The position numbers and the translations under genes were made by a program. A stretch of DNA of 16,858 nt from a virus. Below are positions 8,615 through 16,137 of the stretch, piece after piece. Positions within the stretch are counted from its first letter, which is position 1. Every line of letters starts with the position of its first letter. Location of the stretch: UHGV virus genome UHGV-0362799; one strand, 5' to 3'. The notes beneath the pieces are model-generated. The model did not search any database and was not told where the DNA came from. It saw only the letters and a list, made by a program, of their open reading frames with translations.

Positions 8615-11461
8615 ATGAAATATGGTGCCATTATCACAGCGGCTGGCGCTGCCAGGCTGGCTGCGGCCACAACAGCAACAGGCCAGAAGCTGAACATCAC
8701 TCACATGGCCGTGGGAGATGGTAATGGAAATCTCCCGGAACCATCGGCCTCACAGGCCGCCCTGATCAATGAAGTCTGGCGCGGGACGCTGAATAAAATT
8801 ACACAGAACAGCAAAGCGCCAAATCAGGTGATTGCGGAACTGGTTATTCCTCCGGAAGTTGGCGGCTTCTGGATGCGGGAGCTGGGGTTGTATGACGACA
8901 GCGGAACCCTGATTGCCGTCGCCAATATGGCAGAAAGCTACAAGCCGTTACTCGCCGAAGGTTCGGGGCGCTCAATGGTCTGCCGCATGTTCATCATCAT
9001 CAGCGATATGAACGCGGTGAATCTGTCAGTGGACAGCAGCGTCATTGCCGCAACACAGGAATATGTTAACGAAGCCATCTCCGGCCTGCACCGCGCCATC
9101 ATTGATGATGTGGTTCTTCAGCATAAAGTTGTCCACGATATTGACTACGCCGGTATTTTTGACGGCGCGGATAAGATGAGTCAGGGGTTCTGTATCTGTG
9201 ATACGCCGCAGGGAACCAGAATGTTTCTGCATCAGCCTGTATCGGGTGGCGTAAGGATTGTTGAAACGACATTTAACCCTGACGGAGAAAACGAAAACCC
9301 GACGGTCATTTCGTTTTCTCCCGTTTTCGCTGATATTGGTCACCAGAGTATCGGGGCTGTATGTGAAGACGGTCGCGTGATGCTGTATACCCCGACCGCT
9401 GACGGCAAGGGTGTGAATATCATCAACTGGAATGGGGCTGACACCAGTCTGACAGATGTCACCCGTACGGAGATTTTCACCTCTGACTTTTTTACCGGGG
9501 ATGAAATTATAACGGTGGCATTGTCGGCAGACGGAAGCCTGTTGATTGTTCAGTCAAGTAATGAAGCCGTCCATCTTCATTACAACAGGGATGACCGCCG
9601 CACAGTTTATGTTTTCGATCGCGCTTCTCTGACGTTTAAACACCGGATTTATCTGTCCACCCAGTCAATGGTGTCGCAGGCATTTCAGGGGATGGCCAGC
9701 GATGGTCATTATCTGTTTGCTTATTACGGTTATACAGGCGTATTTCTGACTCACCGCATTGTTGTATATAACCTGTCAACGGGCGAAGTTGTCAGACAGT
9801 TCAATGTGGATGGCGTTCGTGCCAGGTATGGCCGCCAGAAAATGCTGGGGAATGCAGAGCTGGGGTATCCCGTTTTGCAGGAAGCCGAAGGGCTGGCTCT
9901 CCATAACGGAAAACTGTATCTGCTCGATATGGATTTCTGGTGTCAGACAGCCGATGTGGTTTCTTTTGAGGGGGCATACTTTGCAGCACGTGCAACAAAT
10001 TTTTCTGGCCGTTCCCCGGTGAATCCATCTTACTGGACGCCTACAGCATATGGAACGGCGGCTGCAACGAAATATGATGCCACGAAGTCTTATACGTGTG
10101 GCGTGGCGACAAAACGCAGCAAAGCTGTGGTTTCCGTGGAGGCTTACGACGGCACAGGCTATCTGGTGGACTCCGGCGTGGCGTTTCCTGACAGCCATGC
10201 CAGCCTTTTTCTGAGTCCCAATGCTGTAAATATTGCCCTGTCACCCAATGAAGACTTCCAGGTGGCAGCCTATGAGCAGAATCTGCGCTCGCATCGCCCG
10301 TTATTTGAGGTCAGAAAGGAGGCTCCGGATACAGACACTTCTGCTGCTGTTTTTCGTTTGTTCGGGGATGCGTTCCGAACCGGAGAATACACAGGCCGCT
10401 ACGTTCAGTGGAAACACCGACTGAACGCCGTGCACGATTGTCTGGAAATACGCGCTGACGTGGATTTGTTGAGCGGTGGCGGGATTAACCTTTACTCAAT
10501 GAACGATACTCAGTCGGCGGGACGCACAAGGCTTTATTGCACCGATGGCAGTGAAACCTGGTCTGTATTATTGAGTCCGGTCTCGCCGTCATTTCATCCC
10601 GACCAGGACAAGGCAATGAATCTGGGGTCATCGCCAAATCGCTGGAATGTGGCATACCTGCAGGGCGTGAATATTAAATCGGATGACGAAACCCAGAAGC
10701 GCATGACCATCAGCACCACGCTGAAGGCGGGAGCTTTCCAGGTATCAACAGTCGGGAATCTGGGTATTTATGACGATTCTGCTGACGCTTATGTAATTGC
10801 AGCCCGTAGTGACGGCACTGCATTCATGCAGATGGATACAGATATTAACGGTGCATTCCGGCCATCGGTTAACAATACCAGCGACCTGGGTGCGCCCAAC
10901 AAAGCGTTCCGGAGCGTGTATCTCTGCAACTCGCCGACCGTTGTGTCGGATGCGACGTTAAAGGATACACCGCGCGATGCGACGGCAGCCGAAAACGCGG
11001 CATTTGCAGAAATAGCACGGCTTCCGGGCGTGTGGCGCTGGTTACAGAGAATTGAGGAGGAGGGCGAGGACGCGCGTCTGCACGCCGGGCCGACAGTCCA
11101 GGCCGCGATAGCCGTGATGGAGAAACACGGTCTGGACTGGCGGAAATACAGCGCATTTTGTCTGGATTCGTGGGAAGCGGAGGAGGCACAGTACGAAGAT
11201 ATACCGGAAGAGTATGAAGATATTCCGGTTCAGCCAGCGATTTATTCGGATGAAGGGGAGCTGTTGAGCGGGACAACCCGTGTGCTTACCCGACAGGCGG
11301 AAAGGGTTCTTGTTCGCCCTGCAACCGAAGCAGGAAGCCGTTATCGCTTCCGGAAAGAGGAGCTTCTCTGGTGGTGTCTGCGTGCTGTTGTCAGCCAGGT
11401 GGATGCGCTGACAGAGAGTATCAGCGCACTTACCCGCCGTGTTGATTTACTGGAGGAATAA
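8615..11461 (+). CDS. H: Tail fiber protein (gpH family N-terminus; divergent central region; C-terminal intramolecular-chaperone-like domain)
   Basis: 948 aa. N-terminal about 160 aa carries the conserved gpH block ...MAVGDG...ELVIPPEVGGFWMRELGLYDDSGTLIAVANMAESYKP. The rest diverges from P2 H. The C-terminal about 170 aa begins SDATLKD and ends in a predicted helix, resembling peptidase S74-type self-cleaving chaperone domains. Confidence 0.9.
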   Translation: MKYGAIITAAGAARLAAATTATGQKLNITHMAVGDGNGNLPEPSASQAALINEVWRGTLNKITQNSKAPNQVIAELVIPPEVGGFWMRELGLYDDSGTLIAVANMAESYKPLLAEGSGRSMVCRMFIIISDMNAVNLSVDSSVIAATQEYVNEAISGLHRAIIDDVVLQHKVVHDIDYAGIFDGADKMSQGFCICDTPQGTRMFLHQPVSGGVRIVETTFNPDGENENPTVISFSPVFADIGHQSIGAVCEDGRVMLYTPTADGKGVNIINWNGADTSLTDVTRTEIFTSDFFTGDEIITVALSADGSLLIVQSSNEAVHLHYNRDDRRTVYVFDRASLTFKHRIYLSTQSMVSQAFQGMASDGHYLFAYYGYTGVFLTHRIVVYNLSTGEVVRQFNVDGVRARYGRQKMLGNAELGYPVLQEAEGLALHNGKLYLLDMDFWCQTADVVSFEGAYFAARATNFSGRSPVNPSYWTPTAYGTAAATKYDATKSYTCGVATKRSKAVVSVEAYDGTGYLVDSGVAFPDSHASLFLSPNAVNIALSPNEDFQVAAYEQNLRSHRPLFEVRKEAPDTDTSAAVFRLFGDAFRTGEYTGRYVQWKHRLNAVHDCLEIRADVDLLSGGGINLYSMNDTQSAGRTRLYCTDGSETWSVLLSPVSPSFHPDQDKAMNLGSSPNRWNVAYLQGVNIKSDDETQKRMTISTTLKAGAFQVSTVGNLGIYDDSADAYVIAARSDGTAFMQMDTDINGAFRPSVNNTSDLGAPNKAFRSVYLCNSPTVVSDATLKDTPRDATAAENAAFAEIARLPGVWRWLQRIEEEGEDARLHAGPTVQAAIAVMEKHGLDWRKYSAFCLDSWEAEEAQYEDIPEEYEDIPVQPAIYSDEGELLSGTTRVLTRQAERVLVRPATEAGSRYRFRKEELLWWCLRAVVSQVDALTESISALTRRVDLLEE

Positions 11462-11463
11462 TT

Positions 11464-11748
11464 ATGGACTTAACACCGGTGTTCCATGCACTTTGTGCGG
11501 TGGCCGCTCAGTTTCTGGTTGGTCTTTTTACCGGAAACTGGGCTTACGGAGCGATAGCCGGTTGTACGTTCTTCATTGCGCGTGAACACACCCAGGCAGA
11601 ATATCGCTGGATTGAAATGTTCGGGCATGGCAGGCGTATGAATATGCCGTGGTGGGGCGGTTTTGACCCACGAGCGTGGGATATGGCAAGTCTGATGGAT
11701 TTTGCAGTGCCGGTGGTGGCATGTCTGCTGGTCTGGCTGGTCGTATGA
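11464..11748 (+). CDS. Small hypothetical membrane protein, translationally coupled to the tail fiber gene
   Basis: ATG 3 nt after the H stop with excellent RBS GGAGGA 6 nt upstream; 94 aa with two hydrophobic segments (residues about 6-39 and 77-94) flanking a Trp/Arg-rich loop; followed directly by a terminator. No family recognised. Confidence 0.6.
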   Translation: MDLTPVFHALCAVAAQFLVGLFTGNWAYGAIAGCTFFIAREHTQAEYRWIEMFGHGRRMNMPWWGGFDPRAWDMASLMDFAVPVVACLLVWLVV

Positions 11749-11760
11749 CGTAGCAGGAAA

Positions 11761-11785
11761 CAGGGGGATTTGCCCCTGTTTTTTT
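11761..11785 (+). terminator. Rho-independent terminator ending the fiber operon
   Basis: CAGGGG-GATTTG-CCCCTG hairpin followed by TTTTTTT, 13 nt after the stop of the 94-aa gene. Confidence 0.7.
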
Positions 11786-11786
11786 G

Positions 11787-11930
11787 TTCAGAATGCAGCC
11801 TTCACCATTCGTCTCTAATCGTATTCAGTAATTCGCCCGCAGAAACAAACTAAAATTCATCCCCCGCATCACGCCACTGAAAGCAGACGGTAAACTCCAG
11901 ATTTTCAAACCAGCGTCAGAAGTATTTAAA
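11787..11930 (-). pseudogene. Degenerate remnant of a gpU 3' end (frameshifted fragment)
   Basis: About 70-80% nucleotide identity by eye to 12569-12705, the 3' end of the intact U gene. Reverse translation gives ...SAGELLNTIRD then a 1-nt deletion relative to U (...SAGELLNALKDKMPVAAF*). No start codon and no upstream part of the gene. Confidence 0.55.
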
Positions 11931-12151
11931 TGGCACCAGATGTAATATGCAGGCGATTAATATGGTGTGCTTAAAGATCATAAAAGCGGGCAACATTAAA
12001 ACTCCGGGCTGTGTAAATTACCGCCACTCATAATCAGAGATGAAAACAGAATTAAACTGGCGGAGTGGATTGTATACATAAAATAAGTTCAGTTGTTGAC
12101 TTTCACTTCCGTGAATTGATGAAGGTTATTACAATACATCGGTATGATCTC

Positions 12152-12176
12152 TCCTCCTTAAAAGGGAGGACTTTTT
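12152..12176 (+). terminator. Candidate intrinsic terminator
   Basis: TCCTCCT-TAAAA-GGGAGGA hairpin followed by CTTTTT. Confidence 0.45.
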
Positions 12177-12193
12177 AGAACGCAGAAATTATT

Positions 12194-12256
12194 TATAATC
12201 CCGTAGTGTTCTATACATGCAAACATTCTTTTTCCGCCCCGTGCGGGCTTTTTTTT
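12194..12256 (+). ncRNA. Candidate small transcription unit S1 (-10 TATAATCCC to short GC hairpin plus T8)
   Basis: TATAAT at 12194-12199 with AT-rich upstream region; GC stem 12236-12248 followed by T8 (12249-12256); predicted transcript about 50 nt; no convincing ORF or RBS. Confidence 0.25.
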
Positions 12257-12324
12257 GCCGCAAAGATACAGTAACAAACAAAATTGTAATCATGGCAATC
12301 AAAACACGAGAAACATTTTCAGCA

Positions 12325-12353
12325 ATTGCAATAACAAATTAAAATATTGCAAT
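12325..12353. promoter_or_regulatory. Two perfect ATTGCAAT palindromes spaced 21 bp centre to centre (operator-like); a third, imperfect, ATTGTAAT lies at 12283-12290
   Basis: ATTGCAAT at 12325-12332 and 12346-12353; the second overlaps the -35 of the S2 promoter; ATTGTAAT is centred 42 bp upstream of the first. Confidence 0.35.
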
Positions 12354-12376
12354 TGACAATCCCCGCTTAATATAAT
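12347..12376 (+). promoter_or_regulatory. Candidate sigma70 promoter (TTGCAA-N18-TATAAT)
   Basis: TTGCAA 12347-12352 and TATAAT 12371-12376; an alternative -35 TTGACA at 12353-12358 gives only a 12-bp spacer. Confidence 0.4.
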
Positions 12377-12382
12377 CCCTTC

Positions 12383-12444
12383 CGGAACATAGAACATTAA
12401 ATCTTCACACAATGCATGTTGCCCTCTTTATGAGGGCTTTTTTT
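12383..12444 (+). ncRNA. Candidate small RNA S2 (promoter to terminator, about 60 nt)
   Basis: Predicted start about 7 nt after the -10; ends at the GCCCTC-TTTAT-GAGGGC plus T7 terminator (12421-12444); only a 30-aa ORF without RBS runs through the terminator. Confidence 0.3.
12421..12444 (+). terminator. Rho-independent terminator
   Basis: GCCCTC / GAGGGC stem with 5-nt loop followed by TTTTTTT. Confidence 0.65.
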
Positions 12445-12537
12445 ATTTCCAGAATATCACCATTGCCATCATCGGGCGATTTATATATAGTCAGAATGTA
12501 TTGACAACATTTTGCTTCTTTTCCATGAAGGCCATAA

Positions 12538-12567
12538 GGGAGTGCTTTTTACACTCCCTCTTTTTTT
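12538..12567 (+). terminator. Rho-independent terminator (+ strand) abutting the U stop codon
   Basis: GGGAGTG-CTTTTTA-CACTCCC followed by TCTTTTTTT. In the - orientation the hairpin is followed only by UUAU, so it acts mainly on + strand transcription heading into U antisense. Confidence 0.65.
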
Positions 12568-12569
12568 AT

Positions 12570-13028
12570 TCAGAATGCAGCCACAGGCATTTTGTCTTTA
12601 AGCGCGTTCAGCAGTTCGCCCGCAGAAGCAGACTGAAACCGCTCTCTCATATCCTCATCACACCGCTGAAAGCTGATGGAAAACTCAATCTTTTTTGCCT
12701 TTCCGTAACGATCCAGCTCGGAGCGGGTGGTCTGTAATCCTGTAATCACGTACATTCCGTAAATCTGCCCCGTGCCATCAATCAGCGGCCAGGGACATCC
12801 GGTGTAGGCCTGGGTGTTCAGCAGTGTCAGTGACACCTCACCACCGGTAATTTCCGGGTACAACAGACCGGACAGCGTGATCTGATCGTCACCTGCGCCA
12901 ATATACTGCCAGGCCGCAGAGCGGTTAATGCGCTCATTTTTCACATGTCGCCATGTTTTGCTCTGCTGGATCTGCTGATGCGGAAGCGTTTTCAGCTCAA
13001 ACACAAACATGCCAAAAATCATCATCAT
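12570..13028 (-). CDS. U: Tail protein U (gpU family)
   Basis: 152 aa, starts MMMIFGMFVFELKTLPHQQIQQSKTWRHV...LSGLLYPEITGG, recalled as the gpU family signature; RBS AGGAGA upstream; directly downstream of the tape measure gene. Confidence 0.85.
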   Translation of the reverse strand: MMMIFGMFVFELKTLPHQQIQQSKTWRHVKNERINRSAAWQYIGAGDDQITLSGLLYPEITGGEVSLTLLNTQAYTGCPWPLIDGTGQIYGMYVITGLQTTRSELDRYGKAKKIEFSISFQRCDEDMRERFQSASAGELLNALKDKMPVAAF

Positions 13029-13041
13029 AATTGCGTCTCCT

Positions 13042-16000
13042 TTAGTCCCTGTCGCGGAAGCTGTTCATGCCTGTACGCGCCTGTCTGCGCATCTCTTCGC
13101 GGACGGCCTCACCAACCAGTTTTGCCAGTTCGCGCGGATTCTGTGTGTTGACGTTGTGCAGATGTACATGTATCTCACCGGAAAACGCAGCCGCCTGCGG
13201 CTGTGGCGCAGCTTCCCTTCTGGCCGCATCCGGTCGCAACGGGGGCCGGATAGCCTCCGCGACGGGAGCGGAAGCCATTACCGCCCCCGTCATACCTTCA
13301 GCCACGTTACGCGGCTGCGGCAGTGCGGAGACCTGGCGGGCCACGTTCACAACGGGAGCGGGGGCACTCACCGCAGGGGTGGGCAGTACACCTGTCAGTC
13401 TCTGCCAGAGCATTGTCAGTGCATCCGTCAGCCCTACGCCCGCCGATACCGCCTGCACCGTCCGGACAACCTGCGGTGCTTTCCACTCGCCGTGAATGAT
13501 TTCGGATCCGGGCAGATTTTTGAAAACAATATCGCCGGGACCGACGCGCCTGCGTGTTTCCTCAAGAAGCCCGCCGGTGTTGCTGGCGGTTTTCTGTATC
13601 CCCTGCCGGAACCATGCCTCATCCAGCGGGGATTTGCTGCCGGGTTTGCCGACCGGATTGTCCGCCGTTCCCCTCACCTCTCCGGGAACAGCAGGGGCAG
13701 GTACTGCGGGTTTATTGTCACCGTTGTTTTCCGCTGCATCTGATGACCACGACCATGGTTTCTGCACCATTTTTTTCTGTGCAGGATCCCACTCCCACGC
13801 AACCGGCGCTTTTTGTGTGGCCTGTTTTGCGGCGCTCTCCTGGAGTTTTTGCGTCTCCTTCTGTGCCTCTTTGATGCCGTCCGGGATGACACCCAGCCAC
13901 TTCAGCACGGTACCGAGGCCATCAAGGAGCAGCGTCAGCGGCCCCAGCACAATGTTCTGAATGACCCACCCCAGCGTTTTCCCGAACGACTCCCCTGCAC
14001 TGGTGCATTTGTCGAGCGTCTCTTTTGAGGCGTTCGCAGGTTCAAGCAGGCGGGTGAACCACTCCCACACGGCTTTGATGCCGTCGCCAATCAGCCCGAA
14101 CACCGGAGCCAGCGATGCAAAGGCTTGCCGCAGCGGTTGCAGCGCCTCCCACACTCCGGCAAAAAAGCCGGAAAAAAACGCGCTGATCTGATCCCAGTAT
14201 TTCCACACCAGAACCGCGCCGCCCACCAGGGCGGCAACAATCAGCCCGACCGGACTGAACAGCGCCCCCAGTGCGCCCCCCAGTACCGACACCGCCCCCG
14301 TGACCAGCCCCCACAGCGCAGGCAGCCCCGTCAGGCGCAGTGCCATCGCAGACACAAGCCGGACAGCACCACCAATGCCACCGCCCCCCGTCAGCAGCCC
14401 CAGTCCCAGTTGCAGTTTTGCCAGTGGCCCCGCAATCAGCCCGAGCGTCAGTGACAGCGCACCGAACGTGGAAGACAGCGCCAGAACACTACCGCCGGTC
14501 AGCACCAGCCCCCTGACCAGCGCCTGGTGCTCTCCGACCCATTCGCGCATCCGGGTCATCCACGCGCTCACCGTCTGAACCAGCCCGCGCAAATCCTCCG
14601 TCACTGTACCGAAGATGTCCGTGCGTAGCCCTGAGAACGCACCACTCAGCGCCTGAACATCGCCGGAAAGATTACCGCGCAGTGTCTGCCCCATGCGGTC
14701 TGCCACGCCGCTGACATCACCCAGGTTGTCACGGACATCAGCCAGCGCCCTCAGGAACTGCGGGATCTGGTCAACGGAAAGGTCTTCAACGGGTGTGCCG
14801 AACAGCGCAATGGCCGTGTTCGCCCGCTCTGCCGGGTCACGGATGGCCAGCAGTGCACGGGCGGTCACCTGCATCGCCTGACGAGCAGTGCTGCCTCCCT
14901 GTGCAATGGCAGCAGACACCCGCTCAGCATTCAGGCCGAGAGTCTCATACGCTGAGACACTGGATTTCGACATATCCGAACCCCGGATGCTGAACTCCTT
15001 CACGGCATCGCCGGTTTTGTCCAGCGCAAACTTGCCCTGCTTTGCCATCTCAACCAGCAGACTCATTGTCTCGCTGCCGGTGAAGCCCATGTTGCGGAAG
15101 TGGGTGGAATACTCGTGCAGAATTTCCGGCAGTTCATCGCGCATTTCAGCGGACATACGCTGCATCCCTGCCGTCATCAGGTTAGTAGCCTCGTCACTGC
15201 TGGCAGCCAGCCCGTTCTTCATCATGATGGCAGCGGCCTGAATGCTCTGCGGCACATCAACACCAAAGACGGTCCGCATATCCAGCGCACGACGGCTGAT
15301 GCGCTCCAGTTCCCGGTCGCCGGTGTCGCCCAGTGCGCCGAGCGTACTGCGTACCGCACTCACAGCCTCCGCAGCACCGGCAAAATCAGCGAGACCGTCA
15401 GCCTGTATGTTACGAATAATGTGGGTGTAACGTGCGCCATCCTGTGCGCCTTCCCCCGAACCGGCTGCGATGACCGCACCGTGCTGTTCGGACTCCATCG
15501 CCGGAGCCATCATACGCTGCGCCGCATACAGGCCGCCTGTACCCGCCGCCATCGCCACAGCCCCTGTGTTGCGCAGTTTTTCCGCCTGTGCCTTCGCGGC
15601 CTCATAGCGGCTCTGTGCCTGCGTCACGCGAGCCAGTGCCTGCCGTTCGCGCTCGAGCTGCTCGTTGTACTGCTGTGTACGGCGAACGGCACTTTCAATG
15701 GTGCGGCTGCTGCCGGAAAGCAGAATGCCGTGTTTGCGCATTTCCCCTGCCGCCGCCTGAAGTTTTTCGCGCTCACGCGTGCGCAGCTCGTTCAGGCGCT
15801 CAAGCCGTGCAGACAGCGCCGTCATCATCTCCCGCTGCTTTTCAGAGAGGGTGTTGCCGTTCTGCTCTGCCTTTCGCAGTCCGGCGAGCCTCTGCTCCGC
15901 GCGGGCAATCTGTTCGCGGTATTTACTGAGATTTCCGGCGGCACGTTCGAACACCTTCGACTGCCTGTCGAGCGTCTGTATGTTGTCCTGCGTCTTCTGA

Positions 16001-16137
16001 AGGGATTCAGTGAGAGCGCCCACCTGACGGCGGGCGTTTTCGGTCGGGCGTGTCAGCCGGTCAATTGCGCCAAAGCTGACACGAATATCAAGGGATTTCA
16101 CTGTTGCGGACTCCGCTGCGTTGCGCCGCCCGCTCAC
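13042..16137 (-). CDS. T: Tail tape measure protein (gpT family)
   Basis: 1031-aa ORF, GTG start; coiled-coil-rich N-terminus, Gly/Ala-rich hydrophobic central block and Pro/Ala-rich C-terminus, typical of tape measure proteins; position E/E'-T-U. Confidence 0.9.
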   Translation of the reverse strand: MSGRRNAAESATVKSLDIRVSFGAIDRLTRPTENARRQVGALTESLQKTQDNIQTLDRQSKVFERAAGNLSKYREQIARAEQRLAGLRKAEQNGNTLSEKQREMMTALSARLERLNELRTREREKLQAAAGEMRKHGILLSGSSRTIESAVRRTQQYNEQLERERQALARVTQAQSRYEAAKAQAEKLRNTGAVAMAAGTGGLYAAQRMMAPAMESEQHGAVIAAGSGEGAQDGARYTHIIRNIQADGLADFAGAAEAVSAVRSTLGALGDTGDRELERISRRALDMRTVFGVDVPQSIQAAAIMMKNGLAASSDEATNLMTAGMQRMSAEMRDELPEILHEYSTHFRNMGFTGSETMSLLVEMAKQGKFALDKTGDAVKEFSIRGSDMSKSSVSAYETLGLNAERVSAAIAQGGSTARQAMQVTARALLAIRDPAERANTAIALFGTPVEDLSVDQIPQFLRALADVRDNLGDVSGVADRMGQTLRGNLSGDVQALSGAFSGLRTDIFGTVTEDLRGLVQTVSAWMTRMREWVGEHQALVRGLVLTGGSVLALSSTFGALSLTLGLIAGPLAKLQLGLGLLTGGGGIGGAVRLVSAMALRLTGLPALWGLVTGAVSVLGGALGALFSPVGLIVAALVGGAVLVWKYWDQISAFFSGFFAGVWEALQPLRQAFASLAPVFGLIGDGIKAVWEWFTRLLEPANASKETLDKCTSAGESFGKTLGWVIQNIVLGPLTLLLDGLGTVLKWLGVIPDGIKEAQKETQKLQESAAKQATQKAPVAWEWDPAQKKMVQKPWSWSSDAAENNGDNKPAVPAPAVPGEVRGTADNPVGKPGSKSPLDEAWFRQGIQKTASNTGGLLEETRRRVGPGDIVFKNLPGSEIIHGEWKAPQVVRTVQAVSAGVGLTDALTMLWQRLTGVLPTPAVSAPAPVVNVARQVSALPQPRNVAEGMTGAVMASAPVAEAIRPPLRPDAARREAAPQPQAAAFSGEIHVHLHNVNTQNPRELAKLVGEAVREEMRRQARTGMNSFRDRD

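Follow-up and report, generated by a model that had tools for sequence, protein, structure and literature searches.

The site described here is best explained as the promoter of a putative prophage small RNA that carries a recently perfected, probably non-operator inverted repeat in one lineage of a P2-like E. coli prophage, an explanation to which we give about an even chance of being correct. In a preliminary description, the two perfect 8-bp palindromes ATTGCAAT at this site had been taken for cooperative repressor-binding sites overlapping the promoter. Since relatives with the same promoter and the same RNA lack them, the palindromes look like a recent mutational product rather than an established repressor site. 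According to the explanation favoured here, the promoter would drive the middle one of three tandem small-RNA-like units, and these units would be accessory cargo ('moron') located where the tail-fibre operon and the inverted tail operon converge. The inverted repeat would have been perfected recently by templated mutation, either by template-switch correction of a quasi-palindrome or by a short gene conversion between 21-nt direct repeats, in an AT-rich segment upstream of the promoter that is free to vary.

Genomic context of the spacer

The window, i.e., the whole stretch of 16,858 nucleotides that was analysed, is part of a P2-like E. coli prophage, as judged from Pfam matches to the GPO scaffold, P2 major capsid, small terminase, gpV spike, gpJ, a 948-aa tail-collar fibre, gpU and the tape-measure protein. 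The site is located in a convergent spacer of about 820 bp (11750-12570) between the tail-fibre genes and the inverted tail operon; the fibre gene H and a 94-aa ORF are read rightward, and T and U are read leftward (Table 1). The tail operon FI-FII-E-T-U (8615-16137 in the window; 26000-39400 in L184, the complete 43-kb prophage of strain 2-1) is inverted compared to the classical P2 order. In L184 and other complete copies, D and ogr come after FI as a separate unit that is read rightward, opposite to FI. The convergent layout is also found in more distant gpU relatives in viral contigs, one of which (L121) has a serine invertase beside gpU. The tail fibre H (8615-11748) possesses a C-terminal Peptidase_S74 intramolecular chaperone domain (residues 778-840), and its gene is followed by the 94-aa ORF of unknown function (phrog_1443) instead of an intact tail-fibre-assembly gene.

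The 3' end of gpU and the abutting terminator are partly duplicated within the spacer (11774-11990 versus 12556-12760; 27 nt at 93% identity), and this duplicated, decayed gpU end identifies the spacer as a scar of recombination at which cargo has been inserted. The terminator scan yielded eight candidate sites, compared to 1.9 expected; five of the eight line the spacer, all on the plus strand; the same scan found no minus-strand terminator downstream of gpU. No reading frame for a small protein is kept across lineages on either strand of the spacer, because the frames are broken by indels.

A second slot, which lies between the replication genes and the portal gene (L184 11506-14834; L207 15269-17829), differs between otherwise near-identical prophages. 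In strain 2-1, it contains genes for an AAA ATPase and an S8 peptidase, located after ParM/ParR-like genes, and in strain TUM9803 genes for a DNA adenine methylase and an AAA ATPase. These genes may represent defence cargo.

Table 1. Features of the convergent spacer and its right border (window coordinates; a dot stands for features without strand)
Feature	Position	Strand	Remarks
Intrinsic terminator after the tail-fibre operon (H + 94-aa ORF)	11763-11785	+	
Decayed remnant, 3' end of a second gpU gene	~11785-11990	-	contains stop codons
Remnant, 3' end of a tail-fibre-assembly gene	~12040-12150	+	homologous stretch so annotated in TUM9803
Putative small RNA A	12194-12255	+	-10 TATAAT at 12194, within TATAATCCC, same as B; terminator 12233-12255
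Imperfect palindrome ATTGTAAT	12283-12290	.	42 bp upstream of the first ATTGCAAT
Hypervariable island over the B promoter and the 5' end of B	12294-12400	.	W-K identity 69-76%
Two tandem 21-nt units AACATTTTCAGCAATTGCAAT, AACAAATTAAAATATTGCAAT	12312-12332 / 12333-12353	+	71% identical (repeat search)
Perfect inverted repeat CAATTGCAATA-N11-TATTGCAATTG	12323-12333 / 12345-12355	.	11-nt arms, 11-nt spacer
Distal perfect palindrome ATTGCAAT	12325-12332	.	~ -58 to -51; W lineage only
Proximal perfect palindrome ATTGCAAT	12346-12353	.	contains the -35 hexamer
Sigma-70-type promoter TTGCAA (-35)-N18-TATAAT (-10)	12347-12376	+	promoter scan and conservation
Putative small RNA B, ~60 nt	12383-12445	+	-10 TATAAT at 12371; terminator at 12421
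Putative small RNA C with promoter	12463-12568	+	TTGCCA-N17-TATAGT 12463-12491; RNA from ~12498; terminator 12537-12568
gpU tail gene, last of the inverted tail operon	12570-13028	-	converges on the small-RNA cluster

Distribution and lineages

The spacer is present in 72 of 5426 complete E. coli genomes (about 1.3%), ST131 strains included, and was not found in a collection of isolated phages using near and distant search modes. Genomes were assigned to lineages by identity band, and representatives of each lineage were checked. Lineage W, to which the present window belongs, comprises 10 genomes with at least 99% identity; lineage K comprises 57 genomes at 90-95%, including ST131, and lineages T and S together account for five genomes at 80-90%. 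Since only four lineages were found, the comparative power is low. A gapped pattern spanning the variable promoter, which was searched against metagenomes and viral contigs, retrieved only K, S or lineages already known. Among 80 loci of gpU relatives in viral contigs, the RNA cluster occurs only where gpU is at least 96% identical, and covariance models of RNAs B and C detected no diverged copies at these loci. A scan of species-representative genomes with the 16-mer core of RNA B yielded 77 loci, none of which aligned to the spacer; these were discarded as chance matches.

In the W-lineage strain E. coli E100341 (L001 13300-20000), little of the prophage is intact. It has a truncated replication gene and has lost the region from the terminase through the 94-aa ORF, with the end of the deletion exactly at the equivalent of window position 11750; the spacer and all three RNA units are kept. 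Such a degraded state is probably common, since among the ten genomes of the W lineage there is just one in which most of the window is covered.

Three small-RNA-like units and their promoters

Each of the three units A, B and C consists of a -10 box, which is followed 45-70 nt downstream by a strong intrinsic terminator with a G+C-rich hairpin and a U-run, and each is a predicted transcript. RNA B is found with two allelic forms of the 5' end and an invariant core, AUUAAAUCUUCACACAAUGCAUG. Its terminator has the form GCCCUC-UUUAU-GAGGGC followed by U7, and both the RNA body ATTAAATCTTCACACAATGCATG and the terminator stem are identical in W, K, T and S. RNA C and its promoter are nearly invariant; two compensatory base-pair changes were seen among the four sequence variants that were aligned, a result matched by 35 of 500 shuffles, and RNAs A and B show none. 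The fold z-scores are -0.9 for RNA A, -2.0 for RNA B and -2.8 for RNA C. The RNA bodies are conserved at 96-100%, compared to about 88-98% for the adjacent gpU gene, and as this is barely above gpU, it is by itself no proof of function.

A function of the putative RNAs is plausible from these features. Rfam searches over the whole window gave nothing at gathering score, and matches in the spacer at E values up to 10 were at chance level, the best having E = 0.15. When the putative RNAs were compared with 43 translation-initiation regions of the complete prophage, the duplex energies were no better than those of shuffled RNAs. A literature search retrieved no description of a small RNA from P2-like prophages.

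Several further observations concern individual units. The terminator stem of RNA A (12226-12247) is weakened in the window, where it reads TTCCGC...GCGGGC; K, T and S have GCCCGC...GCGGGC, and other W records have CCCCGC. As a result, transcription might continue past this terminator and into the inverted repeat. The 5' parts of RNAs A (12204-12214) and B (12389-12399) are complementary over 11 nt with ten Watson-Crick pairs and one G-U pair; reading of the K and T sequences revealed no such complementarity, and it is therefore probably due to chance. In one T sub-variant of RNA C (L017, L004 and L018), the equivalent of 12512-12525 contains UGCUUUUCUU, which corresponds to 10 nt of the 5' seed of RybB, a match reached in 4 of 5000 shuffles. 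The RybB sequence was confirmed via its Rfam match, and the comparison with RybB was made post hoc; the match is a weak lead to outer-membrane-protein targets. RybB mimicry by RNA C of the window itself was rejected, as this copy shares only 6 nt with the seed, which is not significant.

Small RNAs encoded as morons by enterobacterial prophages include IpeX of DLP12, DicF of Qin, IsrK of Gifsy-1 and AgvB/AsxR of EHEC prophages. Like the units described here, each of these short genes has a sigma-70 promoter of its own and ends in an intrinsic terminator, and they occupy accessory slots by tail or tail-fibre genes, away from the regulatory circuits of the phage. The locus would be of a known kind, namely an accessory gene of a prophage that specifies a small RNA and possesses a promoter of its own. 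However, the known examples come from lambdoid prophages, whereas the units predicted here are located in a P2-like prophage and show no sequence or Rfam relationship to them.

The promoter overlapped by the proximal palindrome, TTGCAA-N18-TATAAT, was joint best in a promoter scan of 11400-13100 and matches 10 of 12 positions, with an 18-bp spacer and a -35 hexamer matching at four of six positions being suboptimal. The -10 box with its flank, AATATAATCCC, is identical across all four lineages, and the TTG of the -35 box is also invariant; the spacer and the remainder of the -35 box vary between lineages. The -10 box lies 45-70 nt upstream of a strong intrinsic terminator. The site is not a P2 late promoter of the Ogr/Delta-dependent type, as the activator dyad of such promoters near -55, TGT-N12-ACA, is matched three times in the window and not once in 11750-12570. 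Taken together, the reading of the site as a promoter is supported, and this promoter, which is predicted to fire, most likely drives the putative small RNA B.

The inverted repeat and its rarity

The positions and sequences of the palindromes given in the preliminary description are exact, the spacings of 21 bp (centre to centre, between the two copies of ATTGCAAT) and 42 bp are correct, and the proximal palindrome does overlap the -35 box. The two copies form the cores of the 11-nt arms of a perfect inverted repeat, and each of them also ends one of two 21-nt direct-repeat units. A further site with one mismatch, ATGGCAAT, is located at 12292, out of helical phase. Single-stranded 12323-12355 folds at -11.7 kcal/mol, corresponding to a z-score of about -4.

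The preliminary description had named a chance frequency of ATTGCAAT among the findings that would count against an operator. The two copies are the only ones in the 16.8-kb window, where 0.35 are expected and two or more were obtained in 10 of 200 shuffles. The 43-kb prophage contains no perfect copy beyond the two studied here. For local tests, dinucleotide shuffles of the 821-nt spacer (38% GC) were used. An 8-bp palindrome repeated within 45 bp was obtained in 54 of 5000 spacer shuffles, and a perfect inverted repeat with arms of at least 11 nt in 11 of 1000. Words with at most one mismatch to ATTGCAAT occur six times in the spacer, compared to 1.15 expected (1 of 3000 shuffles). The arrangement is beyond chance at a p of about 0.01, which is a local, uncorrected figure for a site picked by an earlier reader who had scanned the whole window. 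Helical phasing adds little to this, since by our estimate one fifth to one quarter of all spacings below 45 bp fall near a multiple of 10.5. Moreover, because TTGCAA is self-complementary, the proximal palindrome amounts to little more than the -35 hexamer, extended by one base at either end. The related word ATTGCCAT likewise holds the -35 box of the next promoter downstream.

A purely coincidental arrangement in DNA this rich in AT, with neither mutational bias nor function behind it, would be favoured by the self-complementarity of the -35 hexamer, by the abundance of CAAT and ATTG words in the spacer and by the 16.8 kb that were scanned before the site was singled out. The same 10-bp arms at similar spacing are also present in four other viral contigs, which are unrelated, vary in GC content and do not resemble the present locus. 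However, the local shuffles reach the observed arrangement in only about 1% of cases and the enrichment of one-mismatch words in 1 of 3000, and we regard coincidence as very unlikely.

The repeat might also act as a hairpin, either as an RNA stem in transcripts reading through from RNA A or running antisense from the tail operon, or as a DNA cruciform; such a stem or cruciform could modulate transcription or processing. The 11 perfect pairs and the z-score of about -4 are in line with this idea, as are the substituted terminator stem of RNA A in the window and the missing minus-strand terminator after gpU. The equivalent stems in K and T need G-U pairs, which are workable only in plus-strand RNA. 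On the other hand, the stem is AU-rich with two G-C pairs and is not followed by a U-run, and the K and T equivalents fold no better than shuffles (z-scores of -0.8 to +0.3), while S folds differently. A role as a hairpin is therefore rated as highly improbable.

Variation of the site between lineages

Both copies of ATTGCAAT are found in W only. K, T and S do not possess them despite having the same -10 box and RNA B body, and in every W-lineage record examined the inverted repeat is intact. Outside W, the distal site reads ATGACGAT or ATGATAAT, the alleles being TCATTGATGA in K, TCATCGATGA in T and TCATTAATGA in S. The proximal site reads ATTGCATT in K, ATTGCATTG in S and TATTGtttCAATA in T; a single substitution separates the proximal ATTGCAAT from the word ATTGCATT of K and S. 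Of the three sites that had been noted, only the imperfect ATTGTAAT is kept in all four lineages, as ATTGTAATCA (12283-12292).

The differences are concentrated in a hypervariable island, in which 8-12 of every 20 columns are variable, compared to 0-3 in 12400-12570. The identity between W and K is 97-100% left of 12200, in a stretch that exceeds 1 kb, drops to 76% in 12300-12400 and amounts to 93-99% right of 12400; in 12316-12370, W is 64-71% identical to the other lineages. With 64-76% identity inside it and mostly 94-100% in its flanks, the island cannot be explained by point mutations arising at the background rate. Along the alignment, W is similar to K up to about 12250 and similar to T from 12371 onward, and the stretch in between is unlike that of K, T or S. 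Within the island, the four lineages have one word in common without any change, AAACATTTTCA (12311-12321), at about -72 to -62 relative to the putative RNA B start. If any upstream element is under constraint, it would be AAACATTTTCA and ATTGTAATCA and not the perfect palindromes.

In another reading, the segment is a putative curved, AT-rich UP element, possibly with nucleation of H-NS or Fis, and the palindromes are incidental words. The periodicity of about 21 bp would then stem from A/T tracts in phase with one another, by which the promoter is stimulated or silenced. AT-rich promoters gained by horizontal transfer are typical targets of H-NS. The segment 12256-12380 has a GC content of only 32%, AAACATTTTCA and the A/T-rich ...AATTAAAAATATTG just upstream of the -35 box are kept in all lineages, and the 21-nt unit, AACAWWTT..., is repeated. 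However, this reading leaves the perfection of the repeat over 11 bp unexplained, and the H-NS-like word CGATAA, which is present in K and T, has been lost in W; we consider it distinctly unlikely.

Search for a matching regulator

A true operator would be bound cooperatively on one face of the helix by a dimeric or tetrameric repressor, which occupies both copies of ATTGCAAT and perhaps also ATTGTAAT. The bound repressor would block the -35 box and keep RNA B off until a signal is received, and the regulator would most likely be a host protein. The case for it consists of the two identical 8-bp palindromes 21 bp apart, one of them over the -35 box, the rarity of the perfect inverted repeat in shuffles, the excess of ATTGCAAT-like words and the integrity of the repeat throughout the W records. 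There is also a precedent in the phage family of the present prophage: the C repressor of P2 recognizes 8-bp half-sites that are 22 nt apart and overlap core promoter elements (PMC1904263). In the P2 operator, with half-sites O1 and O2 at the early promoter Pe, as in the present site, two identical 8-bp words are thus about two helical turns apart (22 nt versus 21). The HTH repressor of the present prophage adjoins the integrase and comprises 99 aa, the same length as P2 C (PMC4752584). However, the half-sites of P2 are non-palindromic direct repeats (GTTTAGAT), which lie at the early promoter beside the repressor gene, whereas the present words are palindromic, belong to the late region, do not occur in the immunity region and do not track the repressor allele.

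Phased dyad-symmetric sites over a -35 box, as seen here, are also known from lambda OR/OL and from the CI sites of phage 186. These operators are conserved within an immunity group, repeated at several phage promoters and linked to the repressor gene. None of the three properties holds for the present ATTGCAAT sites.

The complete W-lineage prophage of strain 2-1 encodes an integrase, the 99-aa HTH repressor, a MarR-like protein, a 'derepression' protein and ogr. The prophage of TUM9803, which belongs to the T lineage, has the integrase, the repressor (WP_032201981.1), the MarR-like protein (WP_139501118.1) and most other early-region proteins in common with strain 2-1, as judged by accession, but carries TCATCGATGA and TATTGtttCAATA in place of the ATTGCAAT pair, so that the site does not co-vary with the regulator allele. 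As the same early-region regulators go along with a different site sequence, a prophage-encoded regulator of matched specificity, one of the two sources proposed in the preliminary description, is unlikely. That description had also suggested a search for further ATTGCAAT pairs with 21-bp phasing near repressor or antitoxin genes. No word with at most one mismatch was found in L184 2951-5194, which covers the DNA separating the repressor gene from the early operon. The immunity region contains no repeats with seeds of at least 6 that would mark the repressor's own operator.

With regard to host proteins, a literature search retrieved no regulator of E. coli or other bacteria that recognizes ATTGCAAT. 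The words TGCAA/TTGCA resemble CytR half-sites, and no CRP-like site was seen beside these words on reading the sequence. A host regulator acting in the W lineage only is possible. Of the cooperative operator layout proposed in the preliminary description, the phased repeated words over the -35 box have stood, while every comparative test that was run, be it across lineages, regulator alleles or other occurrences of the motif, goes against it. Perfect sites are missing from relatives with the same -10 box and RNA, only the imperfect site is kept in every lineage, and the self-complementary -35 hexamer explains part of the signal. A true operator is consequently regarded as unlikely.

Origin of the repeat

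We return to the explanation favoured here, a promoter with a recently perfected inverted repeat. At the same position, K possesses an imperfect inverted repeat with the same 11-nt loop and 14 pairs, two of which are G-T, interrupted by bulges, and T possesses a weaker one; as mentioned above, neither folds better than shuffles, in contrast to the repeat of W. The W substitutions at 12327, 12328, 12352, 12354 and 12355, all of which are located within the arms, each pair with a partner base that also occurs in other lineages, although this argument is partly circular, as the repeat was picked for being perfect. In E. coli and other Proteobacteria, template switching has been shown to turn imperfect inverted repeats preferentially into perfect ones (PMC5941160, PMC7202029). 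Such a quasi-palindrome correction predicts clustered changes from an imperfect (K) to a perfect (W) repeat with the loop in place, which is the pattern seen here.

Since lineage-specific changes are present in both arms, more than one event, or the import from an unsampled lineage, would be needed. The direction of change from the K type to the W type would be the natural one under this explanation and rests on four lineages without an outgroup. An import of the island from an unsampled lineage is also possible and explains the divergence as well as templated mutation in situ. What speaks against the favoured explanation is the operator look of the site, i.e., a perfect 11-bp repeat that straddles the -35 box and contains identical 8-mers two helical turns apart.

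Biological implications

The operator-like geometry fails the comparison with sister prophages, and the locus is better described as a cluster of three small-RNA-like units. This cluster, which was previously uncharacterised, is located at an accessory-gene hot spot of a P2-like prophage. A further-reaching view combines both aspects: the units would constitute an undescribed family of prophage small RNAs in one P2-like subgroup, and the region upstream of RNA B would be a swappable cassette, in which a new symmetric operator has evolved in the W lineage that puts RNA B under the control of a host regulator. We consider this decidedly improbable; if it were true, the regulatory rewiring of a phage accessory gene would have been caught in the act. 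Likewise, if the palindromes were a working operator, a prophage accessory RNA would have gained control via a few templated promoter mutations. The putative RNAs themselves could affect host physiology or phage resistance.
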